DNA from: a candidate division FCPU426 bacterium
GTDB taxonomy: Bacteria; Oederibacteriota; Muellerivitia; Muellerivitales; Muellerivitaceae
Direction: 5' to 3'
NCBI GenBank assembly: GCA_963738405.1
Contig: CAVTWJ010000004.1
Location: 33,047 to 97,046, forward strand
Length of the DNA stretch: 64,000 bases
Shown: one piece after another, positions 20,539 through 45,890 of the stretch
Numbering within the stretch: position 1 is the first letter of the stretch
Layout: the number at the start of each line of letters is the position of its first letter
Notes under the pieces: generated by a model
Told to the model about the DNA's origin: nothing
The model's input: the letters and a program-made list of their open reading frames with translations, nothing else
The model's database searches: none
Program-made: the position numbers and the translations under genes

Positions 20539-20602
20539 AACATTGTTAATTTTTCTCTCCAGTTTCTTAACCGATTTGAGGACCGTTTGGTTGAAGCTTG
20601 TT

Positions 20603-20630: not shown

Positions 20631-20687
20631 GAAAAATAAAGTGTAAGTATTTCATTTGGACGGTATTACGGGAAAAAGGATTAGAAT

Positions 20688-21221: not shown

Positions 21222-21235
21222 ACCAGATACTTAAC

Positions 21236-21283
21236 CTGTCCACGACGGGGACCCGTCGTGGACAGTCAGTACCACTGACTGTC
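21236..21283. repeat. Palindromic hairpin repeat copy 5 with overlapping second palindrome
   Basis: CTGTCCACGACGG-GGAC-CCGTCGTGGACAG (21236-21265) overlaps GACAGTCAGT-ACC-ACTGACTGTC (21261-21283). Confidence 0.92.
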
Positions 21284-21433
21284 TTATTCGAAAATGTTTC
21301 CCCGGAACTTTCTAGCTTTCTCAAAAAATTTTAGGGGAATGATAAACCTGTACTTACCTGGTAAAGTTACCCCCTGTCCGCAAAAGGAACCCGTTGTGAA
21401 CAAAGAAAATGCCGATAAGGAGCCTTCCAAACC

Positions 21434-22815: not shown

Positions 22816-24228
22816 TTGCGTGCCCATCTTCTCATTGTTGACGATGAAGAAAGCGTTCGTGAATCTTTCCGTCTTGCTCTCCAGGAAAAATACGAGATGA
22901 CTTTTGCCGAGAATGTTAAATCGGCATTAAAGGCGCTTAAACTTCGGGATTATGACCTTTGCCTGCTTGATATTCTCCTGCCGGACGGGTCGGGAGTGGA
23001 TCTTTTAAGGCAGGTGAAACGGAGGGACGAGACCCTAGACGCCATCATGGTGACGGCGGTTCAGGGTGTGGATGTCGCATTGGACGCGATGAAACTTGGC
23101 GCTTACGATTACGTGACTAAACCCTATAAACTTGAAGAGTTGTATGCCGTCATCCATCGCGCGCTTATGAAGCGTAAAATGGAACGGGAAAACCGTTACC
23201 TGAAAGAAGAAAGACAAAAACACCATCCCCTGGCCCTGTTGGGCTCCAGTCCGGAATTTCGTGAAGTCCTTAAAAAAATCGAGGGAATCGCCGCGGTGGA
23301 GGGTCCGGTTTTAATTACAGGGGAATCGGGATGCGGGCAGGAAGACATCGCCCGGGAAATTCATCGATTAAGCCCAAGATCCAACGGTCCCTTTGTCTGT
23401 TTGGATTGTTCCGACGTTCAGAGGGGACATTGGGACAGTGAACTTTTCGGCATGGAGGGGGATGATTCGTATAAAAGAACTCCTCAATACGGCAAATTGG
23501 ATTTTGCCCAAGGGGGGACTCTTTTTTTAAACCAAGTCGATTCCATCCCCGCCCTAATACAGGACAAGCTGGCCGACGCGCTAACGGAAAAGCAATTTAC
23601 CCGGCTGGAAAGCAAAGTCGTTCAATCGTTGGATGTCCGGGTGATCGCTTCCTTCGAAATCGAATCGTCGGCCCACACCGCCGCACCGCCATTGCGAAAA
23701 GACCTTTTCCAAATATTGAAGATTTTCCCCTTGGCCATTCCGCCTTTAAGGGAAAGGGAAGGGGACCTGCCTGAACTCCTAAATCAATTCCTTAAAAACG
23801 CCAATCAAAGGGCCAATGTTCCGGTTAAAACGATTCATAAGGATGTCATCCAGCTTTTGGTGAAATATCCTTGGCCCGGAAATCTTCGGGAAATGGAAGC
23901 GGTTGTGGAAATGATGGTTCTCTTCGCGGGGAAAGAAAGCCTGGGAATGGAGGATGTTCCCCTTGATTTACTTGTAAAACAAATCGACCTGGCTCCGTCG
24001 AGGGAGGACGCTAAAATTTCCCTCAAAAGGGTCCGTCACCAGTTTGAAAGGCAATATATCCGGAATGTTTTGGAGCGCACCCGGGGAAACCAAACCCGGA
24101 CCGCGGCAACTCTTGGACTTCATCGCAATACGCTCATCTGGAAATTGAAAGAATTGGATCTTGAAGGTGAATATAAGCAGATTGTGAAGAAGAGGCGTGA
24201 TCGGGGGATTGGTTTTAAGGACCTTTAA
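22816..24228 (+). CDS. NtrC-like response regulator (REC-AAA+-Fis HTH) with degenerate ATPase motifs
   Basis: REC (VDDE, LLDILLPD, KP), ITGESG, GGTLFL, WPGNLRE, HTH GNQTRTAATLGLHRNTL. Confidence 0.88.
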   Translation: MRAHLLIVDDEESVRESFRLALQEKYEMTFAENVKSALKALKLRDYDLCLLDILLPDGSGVDLLRQVKRRDETLDAIMVTAVQGVDVALDAMKLGAYDYVTKPYKLEELYAVIHRALMKRKMERENRYLKEERQKHHPLALLGSSPEFREVLKKIEGIAAVEGPVLITGESGCGQEDIAREIHRLSPRSNGPFVCLDCSDVQRGHWDSELFGMEGDDSYKRTPQYGKLDFAQGGTLFLNQVDSIPALIQDKLADALTEKQFTRLESKVVQSLDVRVIASFEIESSAHTAAPPLRKDLFQILKIFPLAIPPLREREGDLPELLNQFLKNANQRANVPVKTIHKDVIQLLVKYPWPGNLREMEAVVEMMVLFAGKESLGMEDVPLDLLVKQIDLAPSREDAKISLKRVRHQFERQYIRNVLERTRGNQTRTAATLGLHRNTLIWKLKELDLEGEYKQIVKKRRDRGIGFKDL

Positions 24229-24231
24229 TTT

Positions 24232-25404
24232 ATGAGCGAATCTAAGATTCCGTCATCTTTCCCAGGAATGATCCCCCTGCGTTCCCTTTTGAAAACAGGG
24301 ACTGACGACTCCCTTGATCTTGCCACCCTAAGCCGATACCTGGAAGAACGCTTTCATTACCCCCCGCTGACTTTTTTGCGAAAAACCCATGAGGGATTGC
24401 TGGGTTCGTGGAATGGCTCACCCGTGCGGATCGCCCCCTCCACCTCCCGCTACCGGCAAATGGCGAGTTCTTTAAAAACCTCTAGGGGGGTGCGCTCAAA
24501 CACAAAGCCCTGGGCTCTGTTATTTCCAGTTTTTGTCGGCCAGGAATGGGTGGGATGCCTGGCGGTCGGTCAAGACGCCGGGGGGAAAGAACTGTCGCGT
24601 CATTTCCTGGAATCCTGGATTCCCCTCCTCGTTTGGACACTGGGAATGGTTTTGGAAAACCGCCAGCTTGGGAAAATGCTTGAAAGGGCCGATCGTCAAT
24701 CTTCTCTTGGGTTTCTTTCCGCCGGAGTATTTCATGAAATAAGAAATCCACTGACCGCCTTGAGCACCTTAATTCAATTACTGCCCCTGAAAAAAAATGA
24801 CCCGGCCTTCATGGATTCTTTCCAAGCTCTCATGCTGAAAGAATTGGAACGCCTTGAGGTCTTGACCGATCAAAGTTTAAAGTTCGCCCGAACAGGCGGG
24901 AAGACCGTCGAGGACGTGGACTTACAGGAAACCCTTGAACGCATTCACCAGCTCATCCGGCCCAGTCTTGGCCGTAAAAAAATCCGTTTTTTATTTAGAG
25001 TTGAACAGGGCTTGAGCCTCAAGGTTGAACAGGCGCAATTTGAAAGCTTGGCGGTGAATCTGCTTAAAAACGCAATCAACGCCGTCGGAGGGAAAGGATT
25101 GGTTCAGGTGAGCGCGAAAAGGCTCCGGCCCGGCAAGGGCATTGTAAAATCCTGGGTTTGTCTTTCGGTCAAGGATGACGGCAAGGGTATCCCGTCAGGG
25201 GAAATTGAGAGGATTTTTGACCCCTATTTCACGACCCGAAATGGCGGAACGGGGTTGGGACTTGCCATTTGCCAGAGGATCATGGAAAACCACGGTGGAC
25301 ATCTTAAAGTAAAGAGTAAACGAAGGCAGGGCACTGTTTTTACAGCCTATTTTCCATCTCATTACAGGGTAAAAAATAAGGGGTTTTCCGATTTCCAACC
25401 CTAA
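24232..25404 (+). CDS. Sensor histidine kinase
   Basis: H-box FHEIRNPL, N-box NLLKNA, DDGKGI, FDPYFTT, GTGLGL. Confidence 0.9.
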   Translation: MSESKIPSSFPGMIPLRSLLKTGTDDSLDLATLSRYLEERFHYPPLTFLRKTHEGLLGSWNGSPVRIAPSTSRYRQMASSLKTSRGVRSNTKPWALLFPVFVGQEWVGCLAVGQDAGGKELSRHFLESWIPLLVWTLGMVLENRQLGKMLERADRQSSLGFLSAGVFHEIRNPLTALSTLIQLLPLKKNDPAFMDSFQALMLKELERLEVLTDQSLKFARTGGKTVEDVDLQETLERIHQLIRPSLGRKKIRFLFRVEQGLSLKVEQAQFESLAVNLLKNAINAVGGKGLVQVSAKRLRPGKGIVKSWVCLSVKDDGKGIPSGEIERIFDPYFTTRNGGTGLGLAICQRIMENHGGHLKVKSKRRQGTVFTAYFPSHYRVKNKGFSDFQP

Positions 25405-31395: not shown

Positions 31396-33277
31396 TCGAA
31401 TGGGAAGGGCATCAATTGGGCTTCTTCTTTTTTGGGTGCCCCTGACCTTCTATTCCCGCAGTGCGGACGGCTTCGTACTGTCCAAAGAATGGGTTGCTCT
31501 GGGTGCCGGGATTTTGCTGGTGGGGTTGGCCCTTTCCCGTATCCCAAGCCTTTTGCGAAATCCATTGGTTGTTATTTCGGGTCTCTTTCTGCTGTGGATG
31601 CTGGGAGATGGATTACTCACTGTGTCTGATTCCACATCTGTGTGGGTCGGTTCCGCCTATCTTTGGGTCATTTTCCTTACCTTTATTGCGGTGGTTTTGA
31701 TCGCTGGGCGGGGATTTACCTACGAAAAAATGCTTCATCTAGCCCTAGCGGCAGGGGTTTTCACGGCGGCCTATGGCTTGGCACAGGCATTGGGGGCCGA
31801 TACCCATAATTGGGACACTCATTTCGAACGCCGGGCCTTTGCCACGCTGGGTAACCCCGATTATCTGGCCGGTTACTTGGTTGCTCTCCTTCCCATGTCG
31901 TTGATTCTTACCCTTCGATCCTCCGGTCAAAGATGGTGGTTCGGTTTTAGGGCCATCACCCTTCTATTATTCGCCGGGCTTCTCGTAACACGGGTTCGAG
32001 GTTCCTTATTGGCTCTAGGGCTTTCCCTGTTAGTTCTGGTCTTGGGGCTTTGGATGCCCTGGGGCAAAACACTTGCCGCTAAAAATAAGAAAACCCTCGG
32101 GATTGCCTTCGCACTGTTGTTAGCGGGTGGGGCGGCTTATTGGTTCCGTTACGGGGGCTTGAATGCTTTCGACATGGGGCAGGTTTCGGTTCAACAGCGC
32201 CTTCAGACCTACCAGGTGGGGATGGAAATGCTGAAGGACCACCCCCTCACCGGGATCGGCCTGGGCCAACTGGGACGGGATTATCCTCTCTACCAATGGA
32301 GGCCCTATACCCAAGCCGAATGGCCTGCCCATCCCCTGACCCTGACGGAACATCTCCATAATGAGTTTTTGCAGTTCGCTGTGGAAGGCGGATGGATCGG
32401 ATTGGGGTTGTATCTGCTGGTTCTGTTGGCCTTTGCCCGACAGACCTTCCAGCTTTTTGGAAATCCAACCACCTCCTCCGCCTCTAAAGAATTAATGTTG
32501 GGAATCGTGGCTTCGCTGGTTGCTCTGTTGGGGCAGGCTTTGACCAATTTTCCCTTTCAAGTGATCCCAACGGGAGTACTTTTGGGATTGTTCTTTGCGG
32601 CGCCAGTGGCATTAGCGCCAAGGGCAATAGAACCCCAAAGGTTTCGCGTGGGTCGAGTCTCAATGGCGGTATTAGGCTTGGTTCTATTGGCATTGGGGGC
32701 CTGGGGGGCCAAGAACATGGCGGCCTCCATCGCTTTAAGGGACACCGTGGGTGAAACCAACCTGGGGAACGCGGCCAAGGCCGGTGCCTATGCCGATCGG
32801 TTAGCGGGTTTGGCCCCAGGCGACCCTAAGGCTTGGGACGCGGTGGCCAAGGCTAGGGAATTGAACAAGCAATGGGACGGGGCAATGGAATCCTACGCCC
32901 GGGAAACAGCGCTCAACCCTAACGTGGTGGAAGCCTATTACGCCATGGCTCAAGACCGGATCATGCAGGGGCGTTTGGATGAAGCCCTGGCCCTTTGCCA
33001 AAAATGTTTAGCGGTGGCGCCTAATTATTCGTCGGTCGTGTGGCTGGAAGGCGTTTGCTATTTCAAGTTGAACCGATATGCCGAGGCCACACAGGAATTT
33101 GAGCAGTTCATTCCCTATGCACCCATGGAAGAATCACTCTATGTAAATTTGGGGGTTTGTTACGTAAAGTCGGCCCGTAAGGCCGACGCAGTGGCGGCTT
33201 GGAAAAAGGCTTATTCCCTCAACCCGCAGGACGCCCAAGTGGTCCTTTATCTAAAATCGGTGGGTGTGAAGATTTAA
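31388..33277 (+). CDS. O-antigen ligase / O-oligosaccharyltransferase-like membrane protein with C-terminal TPRs
   Basis: ATLGNPDYLAGY, TRVRG, HPLTGIGLG, HLHNEFLQ (Wzy_C-like); TPR-like repeats after about aa 460. Confidence 0.85.
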   Translation: MVDRMGRASIGLLLFWVPLTFYSRSADGFVLSKEWVALGAGILLVGLALSRIPSLLRNPLVVISGLFLLWMLGDGLLTVSDSTSVWVGSAYLWVIFLTFIAVVLIAGRGFTYEKMLHLALAAGVFTAAYGLAQALGADTHNWDTHFERRAFATLGNPDYLAGYLVALLPMSLILTLRSSGQRWWFGFRAITLLLFAGLLVTRVRGSLLALGLSLLVLVLGLWMPWGKTLAAKNKKTLGIAFALLLAGGAAYWFRYGGLNAFDMGQVSVQQRLQTYQVGMEMLKDHPLTGIGLGQLGRDYPLYQWRPYTQAEWPAHPLTLTEHLHNEFLQFAVEGGWIGLGLYLLVLLAFARQTFQLFGNPTTSSASKELMLGIVASLVALLGQALTNFPFQVIPTGVLLGLFFAAPVALAPRAIEPQRFRVGRVSMAVLGLVLLALGAWGAKNMAASIALRDTVGETNLGNAAKAGAYADRLAGLAPGDPKAWDAVAKARELNKQWDGAMESYARETALNPNVVEAYYAMAQDRIMQGRLDEALALCQKCLAVAPNYSSVVWLEGVCYFKLNRYAEATQEFEQFIPYAPMEESLYVNLGVCYVKSARKADAVAAWKKAYSLNPQDAQVVLYLKSVGVKI

Positions 33278-33286
33278 AAAAACCGA

Positions 33287-34552
33287 TCAACTTCCCGCGA
33301 TCAGTTTTTCCCACAAAGCCTCATTGATCATGATCTTGCTGATGAAGTCTTTTTCGTCAATTTCGGCGGAACGCGCGACCGGGTTGAGAGGAAAGGTTAA
33401 AGTGAAAACATTTCCCTTGCCGTTCTCGTTTCGCGCCGTGATGCGCCCGCCGTGGTGATAAACGATGAAAAAGCACGTCATCAGATAGATACCGAATTCG
33501 CTGGGCTTGCCGCTGCGCACGAAAAAGGGATCGAAGATGGATTGGAGCGCGTCCTGGGAAAGGCCCGGGCCGTTGTCCTCCAGCTCAATCTGGATTTCCC
33601 CTGGTCCTTCCTTGGGGCCGATGGCCTCTGCGGTCCATTTCACCTGTCCTCCCGAAAATAGGGAAGCGGCTTCCTCCATCAATAAAAGCTCGAAAAGGCG
33701 GTGAAACTGCTTTTGGTCCACGTGAAGTTCGGGCAGGGAAGCGGGAATCTTGTTTTGGACGGCGATACCTTTCTGATCCAGTTCGGGCTTCACCTTGGCG
33801 ATGGCCTGCTCAACCACCTGGTGAAGGCTCACCTTGTCGGGGAATTCGGGGGAGGGTCTTTCCGAGGACTCCCATAGGTCGCTTAAAAGGTTGACCACCT
33901 TGTCCATTTGCCCCTGAACCTTCTGGTAATAATCCTTCCAAAAGTCGGGGTTGCGCAATTGCTCGACGTTGATGTTTTCTTCCTGCAGTTTCCTGGGGGC
34001 CAGGTCCAAGAAGGTCTTCACTGCCACCATCGAGTTGCGGATGTGGTGACTCAAACCGGTCGCGAGAATACCTAAGCTTAAAATCCGGTCGGTCAGCATG
34101 ACGTTGTAAAGGGTGGACATCTTTTCCCGCAACAGCTGGTCCCTTTCGCTTTGAACCATGAAAAATTCCAAGCCGCGCTTGAGGGTGATTTCCAACTGGG
34201 GGATATCCCAGGGTTTGGTGATGTATTTATAGATGGCGCCCGTATTAACGGAATCGATGGCGGTTTCCAGGTCCGAATAGGCGGTAACCAGTATCCGCAA
34301 GATATGGGGCTTCAAATGGCGGGCTTTTTCCAGAAGCTGGATGCCCTTTTCTCCGGGCATCCTTTGGTCGGTCATGAGGACGGCGATTTGAGCCAGGTTT
34401 TCCCTTAGGATCTGGTAGCCCTCAAAGGCGTTGGGCGCGGTCAAAACCGAGAATTTCTCCCCAAAAGCCTCCCGAAAATATTTCAAGGATTTCTCTTCGT
34501 CGTCCACGTAGAGAATGTAGAATTTTTTATAGTCGTAATAGTTGGTTGTCAT
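33287..34552 (-). CDS. PhcR-like hybrid: receiver plus histidine-kinase-like domain, no DNA-binding domain
   Basis: REC (YVDDE, TDQRMPG, KPW), then SHHIRN, degenerate N-box, DNGPGL, FDPFF. Confidence 0.82.
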   Translation of the reverse strand: MTTNYYDYKKFYILYVDDEEKSLKYFREAFGEKFSVLTAPNAFEGYQILRENLAQIAVLMTDQRMPGEKGIQLLEKARHLKPHILRILVTAYSDLETAIDSVNTGAIYKYITKPWDIPQLEITLKRGLEFFMVQSERDQLLREKMSTLYNVMLTDRILSLGILATGLSHHIRNSMVAVKTFLDLAPRKLQEENINVEQLRNPDFWKDYYQKVQGQMDKVVNLLSDLWESSERPSPEFPDKVSLHQVVEQAIAKVKPELDQKGIAVQNKIPASLPELHVDQKQFHRLFELLLMEEAASLFSGGQVKWTAEAIGPKEGPGEIQIELEDNGPGLSQDALQSIFDPFFVRSGKPSEFGIYLMTCFFIVYHHGGRITARNENGKGNVFTLTFPLNPVARSAEIDEKDFISKIMINEALWEKLIAGS

Positions 34553-34564
34553 AGTCCGTCCTTT

Positions 34565-37207
34565 TTAAGCTTTCGCCGGTAATTCAAGGGTGAACTCGGT
34601 AAATTTCCCCTTTTCACTCCTCGCCGAGATCCTTCCCCCTTGCTCCCGCAAAATGCGGTAGCAAATACTCAAACCCAATCCCATGCCCTGTCCCACGTCT
34701 TTGGTCGTAAAAAAGGGATCAAAGATTTTATCCAGGTTTTCGGGGTTGATTCCTGAACCGTTGTCCCGGACCTGGATGAACACCTTCCCGTTTTCAAAAC
34801 GGCTCTTAATCCATATCAGGGGCTCTTCGCCATCGAAATTCTTTTCCTTCAGGGCGTCGGAGGAATTTTGAATCAAATTCACGAAAACATGGATCATCTT
34901 GTTCCGGTCGGCCAGGACCTGCTGGTCTTCCGGCACTTCGATTTCGACCTTGACCCTATCCTTTAATTCGTGGCCCAGAAAGCGTAAGGCGTTGGAAAGA
35001 ATTTCTTTTAAGCCGATCAGGTCCACGCTTCCCCCTGCCTTGGGGTGGGTGAAGCTGCGAAGATCGGACACGATGCGCTGAACCCGGTTCACTCCGTCCT
35101 CGATATCGGTGACGGTTTCAACGAACTTTTCCCTTTCTTGATCGGGCAGGCGGTCTTTTTTCGCTTTCAACAGATAGAGGGCTTGCACGGCGTAATTGAG
35201 AGGGTTGTTGATCTCATGAATAATACCGGCGCTGAGACGCCCAAGGGAAGCCATCTTTTCGTTTTGGACCAATTGCCCTTCCGTTTCCTTCAGCTGTTCG
35301 AGAGTCGTTTCTAGTGCACTTTTTTGTCGGATCAACTCCCGCTGAAATTGATGGGATTCGATCAAATTTTTGACTCGTACATGCAGTTCGGTGTTGGAAA
35401 AAGGTTTTGTCAAAAAGTCGCTCGCGCCGGCGTCCAAGGCCGAGAATTTGGTGTCCTCGTCGGCCCGGGCGGTCAAGAGCACGACAGGAATGGCTTGGGT
35501 GGAAACTTGTTTTTTCAATTCCCGGCATGCCTGGACGCCGTCTTTCTCGGGCATCATCATGTCCAGCAGGATAAGATCGGGCAGGAACTGCTTTGCCTTT
35601 TCCACCGCCTGGTTTCCATCCACGGCCTCGATGATCTCGTAATGTTTTTCCAAGCGCGATTTGATGAACCTCAGCATGTCCGGCTCATCGTCCGCCACCA
35701 GCACCTTTTTCTTTTGGCTATTTCCGTAGTTGTCCGTGCGGAGGGACTCCGAAAGGGGCGTCAGGGTGCTGAAAAGCTCGGCTCGCCTGTAAAGATTGGT
35801 AAGCCATTCCTCGTCCTGGGCAGATTCGGCCAACATTCCACCGGGTTCCCCGGCTTTTTCGGAGACCGGAGAGGTCTTGGCCGCCTCGAAGGGAATCCGG
35901 ATCGTCATGGTCGTGCCCGCTCCCAGACGGCTTTGAGCCGTGACAGAGCCCCCTTGGGCTTCTGTTAATTCCTTCACCAGGGCAAGGCCGATGCCCGTTC
36001 CCTGGTACTTCCTTTGGGCCGAGGAATCGGCTTGCCAGAAACGGTCGAAGATAAAGGGAAGATTTTCCTCGGAAATCCCCATGCCCGTATCCTTGATCAC
36101 TAATACCAGTTGGGAATCTTCTTTATTCGCGGTCAATTCCACCCGCCCCCCGCTGGGGGTGAACTTCAAGGCGTTAAAAAGGAGATTGAGGATGATTTTT
36201 TCCATTTTGTTCTGATCCAGCATGACGGCGCCAATGGATTCGTGGACGCGGGTGGAGAGGTTGATCCGCTTGTCCTTCGCCGTGCCCTGAATGGACTGGA
36301 TCAAACCCTTCACGAAGAGTTCCAAATTCACTGGTTCTTTTTTGACCTCCATGCGGCCCGATTCCAGCTTGGCCAGGTCCAGAAGGTCATTGATCAGTTT
36401 CAATAAACGCATTGCGTTGTTTTCCATGGTGGACAGGATGTCCCTGGATTCCTCATCCAACAGATGCTTTTTTTGATTTCTCAGGGCCTGGAGGGGCGAA
36501 ACGAGAAGCGTTAAGGGCGTTCGGAGTTCATGGCTGATATTGGCGAAGAAACGGCTTTTCATTTGATCCATCTCGATCAGTTTTTGATTGGTTTCCGCAA
36601 GTTTTTTTCGGTTCTGGTCCAGCTCATAACGGGTCGTGAACTCCCGGATGCGCAGGCGGTTAGTGAAATAACTTCCAACGACCGCGAAAGTGGAAGTCAG
36701 AATGAGGAAATAGGTATTGTTGAAAAAAAGGCCACCGAAGGAAACCGGCCCGTGGGCAAAGCAGGCGGTTAAGTACATCAGAAAGGTCAGCCCGGAAAAA
36801 ATGAGCGTTTCCTGGTAGGTCCAGGGAGAGACCAGGCAAAAGGCCACCAAAACCACGTTGAGCCCGGCGTAATAGGGGGAGTGGGCTCCTTCCGAAGCGT
36901 AAATCATCCAGGCGATGGCGCCCTGGGGCACCATGAGCATGGCGATGAAGAAAACCCGGTCCAATCGCGCGGCCCAGGGGCGGTAATAAAGGATTAAAAA
37001 TATGCCCACCAATAAGGAAGAATACAATCGGAGCTCTAAAAAATAAGGAACCAACGAGGGATAAACATTCATGTCCAACGATATGCCCGCCGGCATCCCA
37101 ACCATCGCGAAGATACATACGATTTTAAATAAACGGGACCTTTCCGCCCGGTTGTAATCCTCATAGGCTTTTTGAACTTCAGGCTGTTCCAGCAGTTTTT
37201 CTTTCAT
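34565..37207 (-). CDS. PhcS-like membrane hybrid histidine kinase (TM-HK-REC-HK)
   Basis: About 6 N-terminal TM helices; [23 protein letters not shown] (ADDE, LDMMMP); second kinase [20 protein letters not shown]. Confidence 0.88.
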
Positions 37208-38619
37208 TTGGGTTTCCTCACCTCAAGAAAAATATTGATGCCTGTGTCTTCCAATGTGATTTCGCAAGCACCCTCGGGGGCACCTTCGGGTTTAAGGATG
37301 CCCATTTGTTCCCGATTTCGATAGATCAAATGCCATTCCATGAAACTTTCCATCGTGTTAATCAGAGGATTGGTGGGCGTTACGTTCGTCGCCAGCAGCA
37401 GCCCACCCGGAGCCAGAAGGGCATAGAAATAATCCATCAGTTTTTTGCAAATCCGGTCCTCCAGGTAATCGAAAAGGCCTGCGACATAGATGAAATCATA
37501 GACCCCTTCCTTTGGGCCTTCGTAGGGTTTGAAAGTTTCTTTAAGGATATGGTTGACGGATTTCTTGACCATTTTGATGGGCGTCCCACGGCGGTGTCGG
37601 CTCTTGATGTCATCCAAAATCTTTCCAGTGAATTCCAGGGTCTCGTCGTTGAAGTCATACAGGGTAAAGTCCGCCTTTTCGCAATAATCGTCGTGGGCCA
37701 GGAAGTTTTGGACTTCTTTGGCTGGGCCGCAGGCCATGTCCAGAACCCGAAGGGTGCGGTTTTCCCGGATCGCCCGCATGGTTTCCTCGTTCAACCTTTG
37801 GATGAGGTGCTTGATGCGGTTGCGGTGGGCTTCGCAGGGCGGCGAATTCACAAACCAGAGGTTCACGATCTTGGCGAAAAGGGTGCTTCCCTCCAGGGGG
37901 TCCCTCAGCATCATATTGACCATTTCATAATCGCCGGCGTACCCCAGCGGTTTTTGAAAACTGCGGTAAACAAAGGGCGAGCAAAGAATGATGGGGTGCA
38001 TTTGCCGGCGGCTGTAGGAACGGTGGATGGATTGAAGCTCGGGGGGTATCCCCGCGATGGTCTCCTCAAATCGCTCGAAGAGCGATGAAACAGTCGGGGC
38101 GATGGGGTCCTTCAATTGAAGGATGACGTCCCGTTCAGTCTGGTTCCGGTTCCCCGAGGGTTCGGACCGGATGCTCAATTCCACCTGTTCCAGCCAGCGG
38201 CGCATATCCATCAAGAAAGTCTGCATATCGGCGATCACCACCTTGAGGTTGTCCTCGATGTGGTGGATCTTGTCCCATTCTTTCAGAAATTCGGAAAATT
38301 CGCTCTGAAGCTTGTCTTTCTGGTGGATGGAGGAAAAGATATCAACGTCCAGCCAATTGTCCTCCAGGGTGCATTCGCAAACCAGGAGGATGCCGGTGTT
38401 CAACAGGTTGCTCACGACCGCGCGGCCGGAATAAACCATCCGTTCATTCATCACCATCTTAAAATCGGTCAGGACCTCAGAGAGCTGGAGAATGCTGTAA
38501 GGGTTGTAAACCTCGAAGACGACCGAATAACGGGTCAGCCGCAGGAGGGTGGCCCGCACCTCGGCTCCCTGGCTGTTGCGGCAGTGGATAAAAGTGTCTC
38601 TACCCGTCGAGATGGACAT
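37204..38619 (-). CDS. PhcB-like class I SAM-dependent methyltransferase (fatty acid methyl ester signal synthase family)
   Basis: KPLGYAGDYEM, AHRNR, VLDMACGPA (SAM motif I), YDFIYVAGLFDYL, LAPGG; ATG 38619 chosen to avoid overlap with the PPTase; stop overlaps the kinase start. Confidence 0.8.
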   Translation of the reverse strand: MSISTGRDTFIHCRNSQGAEVRATLLRLTRYSVVFEVYNPYSILQLSEVLTDFKMVMNERMVYSGRAVVSNLLNTGILLVCECTLEDNWLDVDIFSSIHQKDKLQSEFSEFLKEWDKIHHIEDNLKVVIADMQTFLMDMRRWLEQVELSIRSEPSGNRNQTERDVILQLKDPIAPTVSSLFERFEETIAGIPPELQSIHRSYSRRQMHPIILCSPFVYRSFQKPLGYAGDYEMVNMMLRDPLEGSTLFAKIVNLWFVNSPPCEAHRNRIKHLIQRLNEETMRAIRENRTLRVLDMACGPAKEVQNFLAHDDYCEKADFTLYDFNDETLEFTGKILDDIKSRHRRGTPIKMVKKSVNHILKETFKPYEGPKEGVYDFIYVAGLFDYLEDRICKKLMDYFYALLAPGGLLLATNVTPTNPLINTMESFMEWHLIYRNREQMGILKPEGAPEGACEITLEDTGINIFLEVRKPK

Positions 38620-38636
38620 GTCGCTTTTTTTCCGAT

Positions 38637-39473
38637 CTAAGATGGGGTCTTTGAATATCGAAACTCCAGAGTTTCCCGCAGTTTCTTTTCGTCCCAGTGG
38701 AATTTTTGATAAATCGGGCTGGGACCTTTCCGTGAAGAAGCCAGCCAATTTTCATTCCCGGGCCCGGTGATTTCACCGAGGATCGTCGCGTGACTCAAAC
38801 AATAGCGGTCCTCCAACACGAATTGGGAAAATAGTTCGACAGAACCCCGGCGGATTCGTCCTTCCGGAGGAAAGGAAACCGTGAAAGAACCGTCATCCCC
38901 GCCCCATCCCAGGCCCATCGCCTTCAGAAATGCTTCTTTTAGGGTAAAGATTCTCAGAAATACCAAAGGGCGTAAGGCTCGCGGCTGCTTCTCCAGATAT
39001 TCTTTTTCCTCCGTGGAAAAATAACGGTCCGCGATCAGCCGCCAATCTCTATTTTTCGACTCCATAAGCGCTAGTTCCACATCGATTCCAACAGGAAAAG
39101 CTGAAACCGTCAGGGCCACTAGGCCTTCCGTATGGGAAAGATTGAAATGTAAGTCCCGGCTTCTCAAAGCGGGTTTACCGGAGGGACTTAGGATGAATTC
39201 TAAATCTATCATTTCCCGGCCAGTGTAAAAAGAAAGCAAGTGACGGGTCAGGATGCGGGAAAAAAGAAATTCCTTCTTGGCGTAATGCAAACTCAGGAAA
39301 TGAAAATCGCGATTTTCGTCAGGGCTCAGAAAATGAATCAGGAATTCGTCCGGATGTTGAGTGGGTTTGGAATCAAATTCAAGAAGGTGAATGTGGATCG
39401 CATTGAGAGATAGAGCTTCGGGGCTCTCTGTCTTGCGGTCCATCGCAAGGTTTGGGTTGGGGAGGGTCATCAT
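38637..39473 (-). CDS. Sfp-type 4'-phosphopantetheinyl transferase
   Basis: GKP, FNLSHT, VGIDVE, TLKEAFLKA motifs. Confidence 0.92.
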   Translation of the reverse strand: MMTLPNPNLAMDRKTESPEALSLNAIHIHLLEFDSKPTQHPDEFLIHFLSPDENRDFHFLSLHYAKKEFLFSRILTRHLLSFYTGREMIDLEFILSPSGKPALRSRDLHFNLSHTEGLVALTVSAFPVGIDVELALMESKNRDWRLIADRYFSTEEKEYLEKQPRALRPLVFLRIFTLKEAFLKAMGLGWGGDDGSFTVSFPPEGRIRRGSVELFSQFVLEDRYCLSHATILGEITGPGNENWLASSRKGPSPIYQKFHWDEKKLRETLEFRYSKTPS

Positions 39474-40189
39474 CCGGCGCCGCCGTCCATCACCATGACA
39501 CTTCCATTGAGGTATTCCGGGGCTTCCTCCGCTAGAAAATAGACAACGCGGGCGACCTCCTTCGGTTCACAGAAACGTTTCAAGGGAACGACTTGAAGAA
39601 GGGCTTCCTTCGCCTGCGGGGAAAGCTTATCGATCATGGGGGTGGTCACCCCTGCCGGCGCCACCACATTGGCGATGACCCCGTAGGGTCCGCATTCCTT
39701 GGCCAAGGCCTTAGTAAAACCGATGATGCCGGCCTTGGAGGCTGAATAGTTGGTCTGACCCGGCAATCCATGGATTCCGGAAACGGAAGAAAGATTAATG
39801 ATCCGGCCGTTCTTTTTTTTCATCATGTCGGTGGCGAAGCGGCGGGTCAGGTGAAAAACGCCTGTCAGGTTGGTGTTCAAAACATCCGTCCAATCCTCAT
39901 CTTTCATAGCGAAAAGGGGTTTGTCCCGGGTGATTCCGGCGTTGTTCACGAGTACGTCCACATTCTTTTCTTCGTCTAAAACCGCTTTGCAGAAACGATC
40001 GCAAGCTTCCCGGTCCGCCACATCTAGATGATGGGCCCGGGTCTTTCCGTCAAAGCGTCCCTCGATCTCACGGGCTGAAGCCTCATTGGAATGGAACGTG
40101 AAATGAACCTTCCATCCTGCGGCCGCGAAGGTTTCCACCAGACTTTTCCCGATACCGGAGGAACCGCCCGAAATAACCACCTTTTTCAT
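39470..40189 (-). CDS. fabG: 3-oxoacyl-ACP reductase (FabG-like KR)
   Basis: GGSSGIG, NNAGITRD, SS, YSASK SDR motifs. Confidence 0.9.
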   Translation of the reverse strand: MKKVVISGGSSGIGKSLVETFAAAGWKVHFTFHSNEASAREIEGRFDGKTRAHHLDVADREACDRFCKAVLDEEKNVDVLVNNAGITRDKPLFAMKDEDWTDVLNTNLTGVFHLTRRFATDMMKKKNGRIINLSSVSGIHGLPGQTNYSASKAGIIGFTKALAKECGPYGVIANVVAPAGVTTPMIDKLSPQAKEALLQVVPLKRFCEPKEVARVVYFLAEEAPEYLNGSVMVMDGGAG

Positions 40190-40635
40190 GAAAGCCTCAA
40201 TTTTCCAATAAGAAATTTTCCGGAAGCCACTTCATTTCCATCGACATAACCCTTTCCCTCGAAGATCCGGTTCGGCGGGACCGTTTTGGTCAGCTTCATA
40301 TGAATTTCCAGCTGATCCCCCGGAAAAAGGGGCTTGAGGAACCGAAATTCCAATACCGCCCCAATCGCGTCAAAGACCCCATCCACCGCCGACCCTTCCG
40401 TCAAACGGATCAGGAGGGTGGCGGCCTGGGCGAAGCATTCGATGGTTAATACCCCCGGAAATACCGGATAGTCCGGAAAATGGCCCTGGAAATGGATGTC
40501 GTTGACGGTGATGTTTTTAAGCGTGTGAAGTTCCTTTCCCTTTTCCCAGGATAAAACCCTATCCACCATGAACAATGGAAAGCGCTGTTTTAAAAAGGAC
40601 AGGTCTGGAATTTCCTCCATGGGCTCAAGCGGCAT
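40186..40635 (-). CDS. fabZ: 3-hydroxyacyl-ACP dehydratase (FabZ-like)
   Basis: MVDRV, KNIT, HFQGHFP..PVFPGVLTIE; start ATG 40635 or 40620. Confidence 0.88.
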   Translation of the reverse strand: MPLEPMEEIPDLSFLKQRFPLFMVDRVLSWEKGKELHTLKNITVNDIHFQGHFPDYPVFPGVLTIECFAQAATLLIRLTEGSAVDGVFDAIGAVLEFRFLKPLFPGDQLEIHMKLTKTVPPNRIFEGKGYVDGNEVASGKFLIGKLRLS

Positions 40636-40873
40636 GAACCATCCCTTCAATTACTTCCGACGCCGTATTTACTGTCCCCATTTTGATCAGCTGGTCGGGA
40701 TCGATCATAACGTTGAACTCGGTTTCCAGCTTGGCCAGGAATTCCAGAGCCCTCATGGAATCATACTTGGCCATTTCCTTGAAGGGCTTCTCATCCGCAA
40801 CGTCAGCCGGAGGCACGTCGAACATCCCGGCGATAATTTCCCGAATCTTCGATTTGATTTCAGCGGCTTCCAT
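40625..40873 (-). CDS. Acyl carrier protein
   Basis: 82 aa, acidic, YDSMRALE with phosphopantetheine-attachment Ser. Confidence 0.9.
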   Translation of the reverse strand: MEAAEIKSKIREIIAGMFDVPPADVADEKPFKEMAKYDSMRALEFLAKLETEFNVMIDPDQLIKMGTVNTASEVIEGMVHAA

Positions 40874-41782
40874 TTATTGGCTCCTTTTTTTTCGAGCGAT
40901 TTTAACCAGCGATATCCTTTTTTCTTCCGCCGCGACGGCCCCGAGAACCCCCAAATGATTGGGGGAGGATAAGAAATGTTCCAGGGAAATCCTTCCGTTG
41001 AGGCCCAATTCCAGGATAGAGGAATTGGGAACAAAACGGAAAACTCCTTCCGGCAGCAGTTTTTCCACCGGAGTTGCCATCGGGAGTCCGATCCATTCGG
41101 CCTCGTCCAGAAGGCTTTTCAAAATATTCCCCGAGCCTGCCGGCAAGGTTCCGTCCGGCTTCCATTGCGCCGAGGCGTAATCCTCAACTTGTAGAAAGCC
41201 CTCGTCATCCTCCGAACCCGACGCCCGCATCAAAAAGGCTCCTTCCTGGATGGTAAGGCTCGGGTTTCCTTTGAGGCCCGCCTTTTTAAGAAATTCCGGA
41301 ATCTTTTCGGCCGCGCCCACCAGGCAGCTTTGAAAAAGGCCGCCATTCATACCTTCCCATGCGAAGCCTAAAGCGTCGATAAAAGAGGTTCCGCCGTTGG
41401 TCAAGGTAATGTTCGGCCCCTTGAGCTGCAGCCAAATGCCAATCCGGCTTCCCGCCGCGTTGGCAACGGTGTTTGGAAAATCCATGGGATTGACGGTATT
41501 CGGCCCCTTTATAAGGGCCTGACGGTCGAATTCCACTGAGCTTTCAAAGGCGCCGAAGGCCGTTCCCAGGATGACCGCGTCGGTCGGGTTTGGAACGGGA
41601 GGATTGTCGCCCCGTCGGAAAATCCGGCCTGCGGCGATTCCCGCCATCAGGGAAAGGGTGTCGATGTATTTGGGCGATTGATCCGGGAAAAGGGCCTGAA
41701 ATTCTCCGGGTAAATCCTCCATTTTAAGCCCCTCCTGACCCAGTAGGACAGAGGCCTTCCGCTGGAGGACGAGAGGTTTCAT
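40874..41782 (-). CDS. Ketosynthase-like chain-length-factor subunit (no catalytic Cys)
   Basis: VNPMDFPNTVANAA...LKGPNITL matches the KS N-terminal domain; the Cys position reads NGGTS; short C-terminus without HGTGT. Confidence 0.8.
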   Translation of the reverse strand: MKPLVLQRKASVLLGQEGLKMEDLPGEFQALFPDQSPKYIDTLSLMAGIAAGRIFRRGDNPPVPNPTDAVILGTAFGAFESSVEFDRQALIKGPNTVNPMDFPNTVANAAGSRIGIWLQLKGPNITLTNGGTSFIDALGFAWEGMNGGLFQSCLVGAAEKIPEFLKKAGLKGNPSLTIQEGAFLMRASGSEDDEGFLQVEDYASAQWKPDGTLPAGSGNILKSLLDEAEWIGLPMATPVEKLLPEGVFRFVPNSSILELGLNGRISLEHFLSSPNHLGVLGAVAAEEKRISLVKIARKKRSQ

Positions 41783-43005
41783 GAGGAAGCCTCCGGTTTT
41801 ATCAAGACTAAGCAGGAGGTATTGCCGCCAAAGGCAAAGGAATTGGAAAGGGCCACCCGGCCCTGGAAGGCCCTGGCCTGGTTGGGAACGCAGTCCGCGA
41901 TACAGTTTTCGTCGGGAGTATCCCAGTTGATGGTGGGGAGAAGAATTCCTTTTTCCAGGGAGAGGCAGGTCATGACAGCCTCAATAGCGCTGGCCGCGCC
42001 CATGGTGTGCCCGATCATGGACTTGATGGAATTCACCGGGACGGGCCGTTCGGTGCCGAGCGCTTTTTTGATAGCGGTGGATTCGGTCTTGTCGTTGGCG
42101 GGGGTTCCGGTGCCGTGGGCTGAAACACAATCCACATCGGCGGCCTTTAGGCCCGACTGGTCGAGCGCCCGCTCGATGCTGGCCAGGGCGCCTTCCCCTT
42201 CCGGGTGGGGGGAAGTCATGTGATAGGCGTCCATCCCCAGTCCGTAGCCGCCCACCTCGCAATAGATATGGGCGCCCCTGGCCCTGGCCCTCTGTTCCTC
42301 CTCGAGCAAAAGAACACCCACTCCCTCGCTGACTACCAGCCCTTTCCGGTTGGCGGAGAAGGGGCGGCATTTGTCGGGGGTAAGGGAAAGCAGGCGGTTG
42401 AAACCGGTAAAGGCAATCCTTGAGAAGGGGTCCACTCCTCCGCATAGGGCCGCGTCCAAACGGCCTTGCCGGATCTGCTCAAGTCCCCACCCAATGGCGT
42501 AATTCCCGGAGGCACAGGCGTTGGAAAATACAAGCGACCGTCCTCCCAGTTTCAAAAAATTCAAAACGGAAGAGGCAATACTGGAAGCCTGAACCCGGTG
42601 AAAGGAGGCTGGTTCCATTTCGGAGTTATCTGTTTGGATTTGGGTTTTGGAGAGGCGCTCCGTCAGCTGAATTTCACCCATCGTTGTCCCAAAGAAACAG
42701 CCGAATCGAATTGAATCCAAGTCGCCCGGCGCAAGACCGGCGTCCTGTAGGGTTTCTTGAGAGGCAAGGATGGAAAGGATCGAAGCCATTTCATACCGGC
42801 CTGGGTTTTCTCGTTCAAAATTTTCCAAACGTTGGCGGTCTTTGATCTCGCCGCCGATTTTGACCCGGTAAGGGGAAGGGTCCATTAACGTCAGGGGCGC
42901 TACTCCGGACTGGCCCTCTGCCATGGCCGTCCATACCGAAGCGACCCCGTCTCCCAATGGACAGATCACACCCAAACCGGTTACAACGGCTCTTTTGTGT
43001 TTCAT
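41779..43005 (-). CDS. fabF: Beta-ketoacyl-ACP synthase II (FabF-like KS)
   Basis: VVTGLG, NACASG (Cys), HGTGT, KSMIGHT, SNSFAFGG; ATG 43005 after CAGGAG. Confidence 0.92.
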   Translation of the reverse strand: MKHKRAVVTGLGVICPLGDGVASVWTAMAEGQSGVAPLTLMDPSPYRVKIGGEIKDRQRLENFERENPGRYEMASILSILASQETLQDAGLAPGDLDSIRFGCFFGTTMGEIQLTERLSKTQIQTDNSEMEPASFHRVQASSIASSVLNFLKLGGRSLVFSNACASGNYAIGWGLEQIRQGRLDAALCGGVDPFSRIAFTGFNRLLSLTPDKCRPFSANRKGLVVSEGVGVLLLEEEQRARARGAHIYCEVGGYGLGMDAYHMTSPHPEGEGALASIERALDQSGLKAADVDCVSAHGTGTPANDKTESTAIKKALGTERPVPVNSIKSMIGHTMGAASAIEAVMTCLSLEKGILLPTINWDTPDENCIADCVPNQARAFQGRVALSNSFAFGGNTSCLVLIKPEASS

Positions 43006-43673
43006 CCCGGGCTCCTGTTTCTTTGCGACTGGCGAGTACAATTTATTAACAGATAGAAGGGATAAAATATGTGCAACTTCATACGATGGAAAACAATTTT
43101 ATGATTCCTCACGAACCCTGGATGATTATATTCATTGCGCGACTTTCAGGAGAAACCATAACGTTAAACGAAACCTATCGGGAGACTTTTTGAAAACTGT
43201 TGCTTTTTTGTCCGATTTGGAAGGAAGGACTAAGGGGAGAAGGGTTAATTAATAGGTATTTCTTGGTTCTCGAGTCGTAAAGTTTGTTAGGTGGGGTTTG
43301 ACAGAATTTTTTTCACTAAGAGTCATTTTGTTAAGTGAGTGTGAATTTGAGAAGACGAAGAGGGAGGTAAGTAACGATTGCCCTTCCACCCATCGTTAGA
43401 CTCGTTCACCCCAATTAGGATGCTTATGGTTACGTAGGTTCATCCGTTAGGTGTTTCAAAACTGAATCGTGAATCAATAACTTCTTCTTTGTTTGGGTTG
43501 TAAATGCATGTTTTCTTGAATTTCTCAGATTATCGGTTAAGGACCGTGATGATCGTTGCCTTGAAAACCCCACACAGCTCGCCTAGCTTTTAAAAGGGCT
43601 CTTTTATCCATCGGTCCCCGGTGTTAAGGTATCGTTAAATCACTTGCTTTGCTCCGCTTTCATGAGGTCATCA

Positions 43674-45890
43674 ATGGGGATTCAGGCACTTTTAGACAAA
43701 TCATCTTCACTCGCCCCCGGAACCCCCCTGCCCGAAAGCACCCTCAACCGCCCGCTCATCCAAAAAGCCTACGAATTCGCCAAAAAGGCCCATGAGGGAC
43801 AGCAGCGCCTATCGGGCGATGAATACCTGACCCACCTAGTCGGCGTGGCCGACATTTTGGCCGAACTGCATATGGATTCGGTCACCATCGCCGCCGGGCT
43901 TCTTCACGATATCCTCGAAGACACCACCATTACCTTTGACCAGCTCAAGGCCGAGTTCGGCGATGAGATCGCCAATCTGGTGGACGGGGTTACCAAGATC
44001 ACCAAGCGCAAGTTCCAAGATTCCACCATGCGCCAGGCCGAATCCACCCGCAAGATGATGGTGGCCATGGCCAAGGACGTGCGGGTTATCCTCATCAAAC
44101 TGGCCGACCGTACCCATAATATGCGCACCCTCGAATTCCTTCCTCCCGACCGACGGATCAAGATGGCCCAAGAAACGTTAGAACTTTACGCCCCCCTGGC
44201 CCACCGATTGGGGATATCCAAAATCAAGAGCGAGCTCGAAGACCTCTGCATGCGCACCCTTCAGCCGGATGAATACCGGGAACTGGTTAAAAAAGTGGCC
44301 ATGAAGAAGGCCGAGCGGGAACAGATGCTGGAAGGCATCAAGACCCTGCTGGAACAAAGAATGAAAGAAGCGGGCATTTCCGCCCAGGTTCAGGGAAGGT
44401 CCAAACATTTCACCAGCATTTACCAGAAGATGATCCAACAGCAAAAGACCTTCGACGAAATCTACGACCTAATGGCCATGAGGGTGCTGACCAACACGGT
44501 CAAGGAATGCTACGAAATCTTGGGAATGGTGCACACCATCTGGAAGCCCCTGCCGGGCCGTTTCAAAGACTATGTGGCCATGCCGAAAAACAATATGTAT
44601 CAAAGCCTGCACACGACCGTGATGGGCCCCTCGGGCCAGCCCCTGGAAATCCAGATCCGCACCTACGAAATGCACCGCACCGCTGAGGAAGGCATCGCCG
44701 CCCATTGGATATATAAAGAAGGGCGGGCGGTGGAGAAAGAAGACGAAAAATTCGCCTGGATGCGCCAGCTTCTCGACCTTCAACAGGATATAAAAGACAC
44801 CACCGAGTTCGCCGAGGCCATGAAGGTCGATCTGTTCGACGACGAGGTATTTGTCTTCACTCCCAAGGGCGAGGTGAAGGAACTGCCTAAGGGAGCTACC
44901 GCCTTAGATTTCGCCTATTGCGTCCATACCGACCTGGGCACCCATTGTATGGGGGTGAAGGTCAACGGCCAAATGGTGCCCCTCAGGTCCATCCTTAAAA
45001 ATGGGGATATCGTTGAAGTCTTGACCCAATCTTCCCGCGCGCCCAGCCGTGACTGGCTCAAGATCGTCACTACCAGCAGGGCCAAGAATAAGATACGCCA
45101 TTGGTTCCGCACCCACTTGTCCGCCGAGGAAGTGGACAAGGGCCATCACATGGTGGAAAGGGAAGCCATCCGCATGGGTCTGGACCCGGTGCTCGTTTTA
45201 AAAACCGGGACGCTCGATCCCTTTTTTGAGGCCCTCAACTGCCATTCGCTTAACGAGCTTTTGGCTAATATCGGCCACGGCGAGGTATCTCCCAAGACCC
45301 TGCTGAACCGGCTGGTGGCCAAGAATGAGGCGGACAACCCAAGCCCTAAAACTGAAAAGGCCGAAAAGACAGAAACAAAAACGCCTGAACAAAAGAATTT
45401 CAAACCCCTCGCCACTCCCATCGCGGCTCCGATTTCGGGCCTGAAGGGCATCACCGTGGGCGGCCACCAGGATTACCTCATACGCTTCGCCCGCTGCTGC
45501 ACACCTGTTCCCGGCGACCCCATTGTGGGTTATATCACCAGGGGGCGGGGTATTTCGGTCCACCGCACCGACTGTCCCAATACCCTTCAGCTTCCTGAGG
45601 GCGAAAGCCGCATGATCCCGGTTTCTTGGGAAGGTGACGCTAATCAGGTTTACGAGGTGGCCTTGGAAGTCCGAGGGAAGAATAGGGAAAAACTTTTGGC
45701 TGATATGCTGTTAGCCATTTCCGAAGAGGGTGTCATCATCAACGAGGCCAACGCCAGGGCCTTGGAAGGCGGATGGGCCCAGGGTTATTTCCTGGTCGCC
45801 ATTCCTTCGCTGGACCACCTGGATAAGGTGCTCAAGAAACTTCAAAGGGTCAGGGGCGTGGTCAGCGCCCGCCGGATCGAACCCCGTTAA
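43674..45890 (+). CDS. rel: Bifunctional (p)ppGpp synthetase/hydrolase (long RSH)
   Basis: HD motif LLHDILED, RFKDY, YQSLHT, EIQIRT, TGS (DFAY.VHT), ARCC.PVPGD, ACT-like end; ATG 43674 after GAGGT. Confidence 0.96.
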   Translation: MGIQALLDKSSSLAPGTPLPESTLNRPLIQKAYEFAKKAHEGQQRLSGDEYLTHLVGVADILAELHMDSVTIAAGLLHDILEDTTITFDQLKAEFGDEIANLVDGVTKITKRKFQDSTMRQAESTRKMMVAMAKDVRVILIKLADRTHNMRTLEFLPPDRRIKMAQETLELYAPLAHRLGISKIKSELEDLCMRTLQPDEYRELVKKVAMKKAEREQMLEGIKTLLEQRMKEAGISAQVQGRSKHFTSIYQKMIQQQKTFDEIYDLMAMRVLTNTVKECYEILGMVHTIWKPLPGRFKDYVAMPKNNMYQSLHTTVMGPSGQPLEIQIRTYEMHRTAEEGIAAHWIYKEGRAVEKEDEKFAWMRQLLDLQQDIKDTTEFAEAMKVDLFDDEVFVFTPKGEVKELPKGATALDFAYCVHTDLGTHCMGVKVNGQMVPLRSILKNGDIVEVLTQSSRAPSRDWLKIVTTSRAKNKIRHWFRTHLSAEEVDKGHHMVEREAIRMGLDPVLVLKTGTLDPFFEALNCHSLNELLANIGHGEVSPKTLLNRLVAKNEADNPSPKTEKAEKTETKTPEQKNFKPLATPIAAPISGLKGITVGGHQDYLIRFARCCTPVPGDPIVGYITRGRGISVHRTDCPNTLQLPEGESRMIPVSWEGDANQVYEVALEVRGKNREKLLADMLLAISEEGVIINEANARALEGGWAQGYFLVAIPSLDHLDKVLKKLQRVRGVVSARRIEPR

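Follow-up and report, generated by a model that had tools for sequence, protein, structure and literature searches.

A polyketide-like acyl synthase module ahead of a probable Phc-type signaling cassette in a candidate division FCPU426 bacterium

The window analyzed here, a whole stretch of 64,000 nucleotides from a candidate division FCPU426 bacterium (GenBank assembly GCA_963738405.1, contig CAVTWJ010000004.1, positions 33,047 to 97,046 of the forward strand), contains nine tightly packed open reading frames (ORFs), all on the minus strand, at positions 33287-43005 (ORF list, Pfam and NCBIfam). Judged by its sequence homologies, this operon is very probably a Phc-type signal cassette, composed of a PhcB-family S-adenosylmethionine (SAM)-dependent methyltransferase (MT), a PhcS-type sensor kinase and a PhcQ/PhcR-like receiver-kinase. 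The MT gene is preceded by a module of six genes encoding a ketosynthase (KS), a KS-like partner, an acyl carrier protein (ACP), a dehydratase (DH), a ketoreductase (KR) and a phosphopantetheinyl transferase (PPTase). In the Ralstonia solanacearum species complex, the product of PhcB is methyl 3-hydroxymyristate or -palmitate, which is sensed by PhcS; the acyl chain used by PhcB comes from primary metabolism, and output proceeds via the LysR regulator PhcA. For the operon described here, gene order and phylogenies suggest a fuller interpretation that we hold to be moderately probable, namely that the chain made by the module is the substrate of the MT and that the resulting ester is what the sensor detects. 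If the module does feed the MT, the carbon chain of a quorum signal would come from its own polyketide-like synthase.

The MT (37204..38619, minus strand; 471 aa) shares 40% identity and 61% positives over 458 of its 471 aa (E 7e-124) with the protein named PhcB of Ralstonia pseudosolanacearum by NCBI (P0388), a reference that was reached by a search with a Paraburkholderia member of the family. It is thus a full-length homolog and groups with PhcB, as a preliminary description of the operon, made from the DNA alone, had proposed. The AlphaFold2 (AF2) model of the MT (predicted local distance difference test score, pLDDT, 90.8) comprises an N-terminal beta-barrel (residues 9-85), a helical domain (101-285) and a Rossmann MT domain (290-468), and the alignment with PhcB covers all three. 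The family is large, with more than 5,744 matching proteins in a 90%-clustered collection and 4,508 clusters in a 50%-clustered library, 598 of them at E 1e-30 or better; for most of the best 150 clusters listed of the 4,508, the alignment to the MT is near full length, and many homologs carry the JGI name '3-hydroxypalmitic acid methyl ester biosynthesis protein'. A sequence search of the MT against the PDB gave no match. The nearest solved structure is an uncharacterized Bordetella protein (3ocj, Z 20.6, 265 residues aligned), followed by small-molecule methyltransferases, and in these fold searches with the whole model the matches are confined to the helical and methyltransferase parts, the barrel (residues 9-85) having neither a fold match in them nor a Pfam match. 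The six-stranded N-terminal barrel is common to the PhcB family, Ralstonia PhcB included. Together with the helical part, it is a candidate for handling a carrier-bound chain. Literature searches on phcB in Verrucomicrobia, on K19620 and on PhcB-like proteins returned nothing relevant, and a search pairing phcB with acyl carrier protein led no further than papers on Ralstonia and on quorum sensing in general.

As a reference for the kinases we used a metagenome contig (L150) with a Ralstonia-type phcBSRQ locus, the gene sizes of which are 470/442/368/339 aa and the PhcB of which is 77% identical to the Ralstonia protein; these sizes fit those reported for PhcB, PhcR and PhcQ in passages of PMC8578825. 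The membrane hybrid kinase (34565..37207, minus strand; 880 aa), described by Pfam as HisKA-HATPase-REC-HisKA-HATPase, consists of a PhcS-type multi-pass sensor (residues ~1-195, with about six membrane helices in residues 26-180 as counted by eye from the sequence), a first kinase core (His226), a receiver (REC) and a second kinase core (His664). Its alignment to the L150 PhcS begins at residue 8, and the sensor domain alone shares 29% identity with that protein over 193 aa (E 3e-29). His226 is aligned with PhcS His230, reported in part of PMC11960443 as the autophosphorylated histidine, while the second core is 39% identical to the PhcS core and residues 502-877 align to the entire PhcR. The product of the last operon gene, a receiver-kinase (33287..34552, minus strand; 421 aa; REC, HisKA and HATPase), is 45% identical to PhcQ in its receiver and linker (E 1e-47) and 33% identical to the receiver of PhcR; there is a further match in the HATPase part, and the C-terminus has the kinase fold, as in PhcR. 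Pfam detects no DNA-binding domain in this protein; for Ralstonia, sections of PMC8578825 describe PhcR as a receiver plus kinase and PhcQ as a receiver, without a DNA-binding domain. The kinases are therefore PhcS/PhcR/PhcQ-like, in keeping with the PhcS/PhcR likeness claimed earlier, with their domains rearranged.

The same parts could also serve within a single cell. Module and cassette might be linked with a product that is not a cell-to-cell signal, in which case the trio would monitor or adjust the state of the cell's own lipids (homeostasis of the envelope or membrane), with the lipid in question supplied by the module. A multi-pass membrane sensor would be able to respond to a membrane lipid, the operon itself contains no gene for the output regulator, and our literature searches found no study on the large non-betaproteobacterial branch of the MT family; the Phc literature consulted describes such signaling in Ralstonia and notes relatives in Cupriavidus. 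We nevertheless regard this alternative as quite improbable, since the homology extends over the full length of Ralstonia parts for which secretion and sensing of a methyl ester are established (PMC8578825 and PMC11960443), and since the allelic divergence detailed below falls mainly in the synthase and in the sensor domain, a pattern typical of signal-receptor specificity pairs.

Upstream of the cassette, the module begins with a FabF-like KS (41779..43005, minus strand; 408 aa; PF00109 and PF02801), in which the triad Cys164/His297/His333 is invariant in an alignment of 9/9 orthologs and which is ~50% identical to PDB 9s5h_B. The KS-like partner (40874..41782, minus strand; 302 aa), a protein of the chain-length-factor (CLF) type, has only a weak match to PF00109, is without the C-terminal KS domain and contains no Cys in residues 100-152, which are aligned to the active-site region of FabF. 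Its AF2 model (pLDDT 86.5) has as best fold match the ishigamide CLF Iga12 (6kxf_B: E 7e-15, TMq 0.71, 19% identity), the fold library being one without PDB entry 9s5h. KS and partner are predicted to form a heterodimer, with a complex model at 0.96 versus 0.50 for the best of three controls; the mark used is reached by 116/157 solved complexes and 2/215 mismatched pairs, different runs share at least 99% of their contacts, and the pLDDT of the partner is at least 88. Because similar KS-CLF complexes have already been solved, this model shows likeness only and not binding. The best PDB sequence match of both subunits is the heterodimer 9s5h (KS to chain B, 361 bits; KS-like to chain C, 68 bits), and the next for both is ishigamide Iga11/Iga12 (KS to Iga11, 276 bits). 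In sequence and predicted fold, the pair looks like the KS-CLF of a highly reducing type II polyketide synthase (PKS), a class to which, along with the aryl polyenes, the literature of PMC8358021 and PMC10698177 belongs, and the earlier assignment of a KS paired with a Cys-less KS-like subunit of KS-CLF type holds. Chains B and C of PDB 9s5h/9s5i are a solved heterodimer of two '3-oxoacyl-ACP synthases', and no publication tied to either entry was found. The KS-like family is narrow: its 66 proteins are at least 44% identical and all ~300 aa long (some are truncated), and the next matches are at the level of FabF, with nothing between. An apparent fusion of KS and KS-like in one relative (L036) was rejected, as an in-frame stop parts them into two genes.

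The remaining module genes, also on the minus strand, encode the ACP (40625..40873; 82 aa; PF00550), a FabZ-like 3-hydroxyacyl-ACP DH (40186..40635/40650; 149-154 aa; PF07977; NF000582 FabZ 115.5 vs cutoff 113), a FabG-like 3-oxoacyl-ACP KR (39470..40189; 239 aa; adh_short/KR; TIGR01830 268 vs cutoff 297.75, NF009466 241.6 vs 222) and an Sfp-type 4'-phosphopantetheinyl transferase (38637..39473; 278 aa; PF01648 and PF22624), of which a tblastn search found no second copy in the genome. Four of the junctions in the operon are minus-strand ATGA overlaps (41779-82, 40186-89, 39470-73 and 37204-07). At the other junctions, KS-like and ACP abut directly (0 nt), ACP and DH (counted from its ATG start) overlap by 11 nt, and gaps of 17 nt and 12 nt separate PPTase from MT and kinase from receiver-kinase, respectively. 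The ATG starts of KS (43005, preceded by AGGAG) and MT (38619) suit the sequence better than longer ORFs starting with TTG. Thus, the nine same-strand genes are as first described in position, domain content and all four overlaps, and the accompanying remark that the operon lacks an enoyl reductase, an acyltransferase and a thioesterase also stands, since no operon protein matched these families in Pfam or NCBIfam.

The module is additional to the housekeeping fatty acid synthase (FAS). The genome that contains the window (3.18 Mb, 23 contigs, 90.7% complete) carries a cluster fabD-fabG-acpP-fabF on contig C5 (fabF 628.6 bits, above the curated cutoff; acpP 115.7; fabD 335.4) and fabZ on contig C20, which answers in the negative the question whether the operon genes are the sole housekeeping set. 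The operon KS, by comparison, scores 368 bits on the fabF model (cutoff 493.75) and the operon ACP 34.6 bits on the acyl_carrier model (cutoff 70.45), both below threshold. Given this separate cluster, the KS, KS-like, ACP, DH, KR and PPTase genes of the operon are a dedicated extra. A third KS in the genome (G000:C1:77379-79219) scores 304.9 bits on the fabF model and is 27% identical to the operon KS; an SDR/KR-like gene (short-chain dehydrogenase/reductase, SDR) lies just ahead of it, and the two resemble a further FAS-like pair.

The collection holds 99 species genomes of the phylum to which the window belongs. The MT is present in 24/30 other genomes of the same family, in 1/1 of the sister family and in 0/68 elsewhere in the phylum. 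In 20 of these 25 genomes we examined ~19 kb around the MT, and wherever the contig permits the MT is followed by the kinase and then the receiver-kinase. The six-gene module lies directly upstream of the MT in 9/20 loci and is absent from 10, one contig being too short. None of the 10 module-free genomes, nor 3 more, has a KS-like ortholog anywhere, there being merely 26-34-bit matches on FabF-sized ORFs. Three further genomes do have one, on the same contig and strand as the MT in two (G049 and G071) and on a different contig in the third (G048); an extra locus, L060, has the module directly upstream of the MT on the same strand, an arrangement that the examined loci show for 11 of the 13 module-bearing genomes. 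In the family genomes without the MT, the KS-like ortholog was found in 0/6. In total, among 31 family genomes including that of the window, 13 have module and MT, 0 the module alone, 12 the MT alone (13 with the sister-family genome) and 6 neither.

Beyond the phylum, at least 592 relatives came up when species-representative genomes were scanned; the best 80 of these are mostly Verrucomicrobiota bins with 47-63% MT identity, together with some Binatia, Chloroflexota and 'delta proteobacterium' bins. Where distant loci have enough flank, the kinase follows the MT in 61/65 and the receiver-kinase is present in 64/64. Of the distant loci in which 6.2 kb or more is available upstream, 1/54 has the KS-like ortholog, namely L060, from the lineage of the window itself. 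Genes for KS, KS-like, ACP, DH and PPTase were found in 0/80 Ralstonia-type loci (flanks up to 6 kb), and plasmid pPHS1_P of Paraburkholderia graminis has an MT, a kinase and two response regulators (MT-kinase-RR-RR) without the module. The trio of MT and two kinases is an old, widespread cassette. Since it stands alone in relatives, the module supplements a Phc-type cassette that is autonomous, and is very probably a later, single and lineage-restricted insertion. The idea of a self-contained make-and-sense circuit, as first formulated, is to be modified accordingly: a dedicated synthase, a PhcB-like MT and a sensor kinase are indeed co-encoded, but the trio occurs without the module in 13 relatives.

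The chromosomal site itself is conserved, with a PD-(D/E)XK nuclease gene, the optional module and then the MT; in the genus of the window, relA takes the place of the nuclease gene. That relatives have this site either occupied or empty would also be expected if the adjacency were accidental, an unrelated FAS-like cluster having settled at a permissive position behind the nuclease gene and ahead of the cassette without being functionally connected to the latter. We consider such an accident highly improbable, because the orientation of the module is kept across at least six genera and 13 genomes, the junctions are tight, the gene order is interleaved in one relative and the module never occurs without the MT. 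The interleaving concerns a 513-aa CrtI-family FAD oxidoreductase (TIGR02734 96.8 bits, under the cutoff of 238). In sister modules, one or two extra genes, encoding this enzyme and a second SDR, lie between PPTase and MT (oxidoreductase loci before the MT: L034:10482-12029, L037:7406-8947, L060:7196-8836 and L052:346-1833); both are absent from the operon in the window, and the oxidoreductase is absent from its genome too. In the congener locus L036 (genome G047), the oxidoreductase gene (L036:7409-8974), 58% identical to the L037 copy, is found between MT and kinase, so that biosynthetic and sensing genes are interleaved there.

A more substantial alternative, although in our estimation a rather unlikely one, is that the product of the module is a lipid or polyene in its own right (such as a pigment, a membrane lipid or some other secondary product), that the module only shares a transcript with the Phc-type cassette or is placed under it, and that the MT uses a 3-hydroxyacyl substrate from primary fatty acid metabolism as in Ralstonia. 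It would accord with the autonomy of the cassette in 13 relatives and nearly all distant loci, with tailoring genes (the CrtI-family oxidoreductase and the SDR) that come and go as in an ordinary biosynthetic cluster, and with the lack of a release enzyme linking ACP to MT. It fits less well with the absence of the module from all six family genomes that lack the MT, with a KS-like family of uniform length and without intermediates, with the 17-nt spacing between PPTase and MT and the ATGA overlap that couples the kinase, which argue for one transcript, and with the position of the CrtI-like gene in L036. It is also disfavored by the co-segregation of the MT allele and the sensor domain with the module, to which we turn below.

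Module-bearing genomes are united in a single clade of the MT tree (SH-aLRT 99, 1 change), nested among module-free genomes of the family, with Verrucomicrobiota and Betaproteobacteria outside. They also form one clade in a tree of kinase residues 1-195 (SH-aLRT 96, 1 change); in a tree of residues 196-880 they are scattered (5 changes), and the tree of the second kinase requires 7 changes for the module, a number matched by 201/500 shuffles and hence no better than shuffled labels. Three genera (g15, g16 and g17) hold both module-bearing and module-free genomes. Within a g16 pair, one with and one without the module, the MTs are 61% identical and the second kinases 87.5%, and identity along the first kinase is 42, 45, 81, 65, 68, 94, 95, 74 and 86% per 100-aa window, that is, 42-45% in the sensor domain versus 65-95% in the cytoplasmic kinase part. 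Forcing this pair together in the MT tree is rejected (approximately unbiased test, p-AU 1.25e-5). Such a split has a parallel in Ralstonia, where, according to passages of PMC8578825, signal type governs the grouping of PhcB and PhcS, and phylotype that of PhcR and PhcQ; as in the Ralstonia phcBSRQ system, synthase and sensor here evolve apart from the downstream relay proteins. A strict filter for clade-specific residues found none in the sensor domain. We rejected this as a sign against a changed ligand, since sensor domains are only 37-68% identical even between like pairs and are too variable for such a filter. The co-segregation fits a co-adapted unit of synthase, MT and sensor that has been moved by recombination, as far as the sequences allow this to be read.

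From linkage, the interleaved order in one relative and the co-segregating trees we infer that the module feeds the MT; the nature of the chain, the sensing of the ester and its action between cells are likewise proposals. Several observations weigh against this fuller interpretation. As the MT-kinase-kinase cassette occurs without the module in 13 relatives and nearly all distant loci, the MT is not in need of a private synthase, and Pfam and NCBIfam find in the operon no thioesterase or acyltransferase for release or hand-over of the chain. The MT and the sensor domain are the nearest neighbors of the module, so that plain linkage with recombination gives the same gradient among trees. Moreover, the trees come from quick searches and carry no support values other than SH-aLRT, the g16 pair was picked for the AU test after the tree had been seen, a single module-bearing clade is not rejected for the whole kinase (p 0.476), clade-specific residues under the strict filter number a mere 3 in the MT, and all compared genomes are metagenome bins.

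Hence, we hypothesize that the synthase was captured ahead of a Phc-type cassette in one sublineage of an uncultured phylum and that it works as follows. The PPTase would activate the private ACP and the housekeeping FabD would load malonate, whereupon the KS/KS-like heterodimer, KR and DH would use this ACP to assemble an acyl chain of the 3-hydroxy or unsaturated kind. The PhcB-like enzyme would convert the chain to a diffusible methyl ester, which would be detected by the multi-pass sensor domain of the 880-aa kinase and relayed, through an internal phosphorelay and the receiver-kinase, to an output regulator encoded outside the operon. An unsaturated or polyene chain is suggested by the missing enoyl reductase, by the resemblance of the KS partner to Iga12 and by the CrtI-family enzyme of sister modules, and a 3-hydroxy acid by the homology to PhcB; an enoyl reductase may also act on the chain in trans. 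A bolder extension, possible but on balance doubtful, is that module, MT and sensor constitute an exchangeable 'pherotype' cassette for a new signal class, the methyl ester of an unsaturated or polyenoic acid from a dedicated type II PKS, swapped between genera by recombination while the cytoplasmic relay stays in place.

The surroundings of the operon are ordinary chromosome. A gene of the relA/spoT type begins at 43644, divergent from the operon start, and the non-coding region of ~640 nt between them (43006..43643, upstream of KS on the minus strand, as delimited from the sequence) presumably holds the operon promoter. The operon end is faced by convergent glycosyltransferase and O-antigen-ligase-like genes, and a dcw cell-division cluster occupies positions 390-9866 of the window. 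A promoter and terminator scan of 33000-43700 gave site counts no higher than in shuffles, with a single sigma-70-like match upstream of KS (43334-43306), and the sigma-54 consensus has 14 matches in the window versus 27 expected, none of them upstream of KS. Positions 22816-25404, 19 kb from the operon, hold the gene of an NtrC-type sigma-54 activator (470 aa), followed by a kinase gene; the ortholog of the activator, 54% identical over the full length, is directly upstream of KS in another locus (L037:600-2012; genome G051). This activator may be the missing output regulator, or its position may be a coincidence. A 28-bp palindrome, TGTCCACGACGGGGACCCGTCGTGGACA, and variants of it are present in six copies between small ORFs at 15531-21418. 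These palindromes, which mark cassettes elsewhere in the window (15532-21418), do not flank the operon. Repeats of CTGTTAAAC, phased at ~21 bp, fill part of an intergenic gap (13593-13754), and tandem 24-nt and 132-nt repeats occur within two large plus-strand ORFs (59994-60463 and 63401-63928); the codons ACC, CCC and ACG abound in the 24-nt units, suggesting Thr/Pro-rich linkers of surface proteins.

This analysis adds to the Phc literature a PhcB/PhcS/PhcQ-like cassette that is common in uncultured Verrucomicrobiota and other phyla, and the attachment, in one lineage, of a private acyl assembly line to a Phc-type cassette. At 5.8 kb, the six biosynthetic genes and the MT gene are small enough for direct expression and analysis. 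The module-bearing and module-free versions within the same genera also offer a natural comparison for the joint evolution of signal and receptor specificity.

Among known systems, the closest is phcBSRQ of Ralstonia. In both cases, an MT homologous to PhcB from end to end is followed directly by a PhcS-type sensor kinase (here with an ATGA overlap) in which the phospho-histidine is aligned, and by a downstream receiver protein without a DNA-binding domain. However, there are three genes here instead of four (phcB, phcS of ~442 aa, phcR and phcQ). The sensor is part of a larger fusion protein of 880 aa that also contains two kinase cores and a receiver, and in the last protein a receiver of the PhcQ type is combined with a kinase domain. 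In addition, the MT is preceded by six genes for a private acyl synthase, as in none of the 80 Ralstonia-type loci, and the host belongs to a small uncultured phylum and not to the Betaproteobacteria. The module-free Phc-like cassettes of Verrucomicrobiota, Binatia and Chloroflexota bins and of Paraburkholderia share the trio and its spacing, at an MT identity of 47-63%, but are without KS, KS-like, ACP, DH, KR and PPTase genes, the sole carrier among distant loci being L060 of the window's lineage. Compared with the housekeeping type II FAS (FabF, AcpP, FabG and FabZ), the module has the same enzyme families and catalytic motifs, whereas its KS and ACP fall under the equivalog cutoffs that the C5 copies of the genome exceed. 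The atlas neighbors of the module include PF13723 clusters, which we record as a lead only. With the ishigamide Iga11-Iga12 KS-CLF (PDB 6KXD/E/F) and the aryl polyene ApeO-ApeC systems, the module has in common a KS with a Cys-less partner, an ACP, a KR and a DH, and no enoyl reductase in the cluster. In contrast to these systems, the KS-like protein is 302 aa long instead of 360-378 and 19% identical to Iga12, and genes for amide formation, an aryl starter, a thioesterase and export are absent. With respect to the aryl polyene cluster in particular, the KS-like protein matches PF00109 only and not the CLF family PF13723 of that type, the DH scores 24.4 on the ApeI-like model against a cutoff of 28.5, and the thioesterase and export genes of such clusters are not in the operon. 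The gene cluster described here is also wired to a methyltransferase and kinases.

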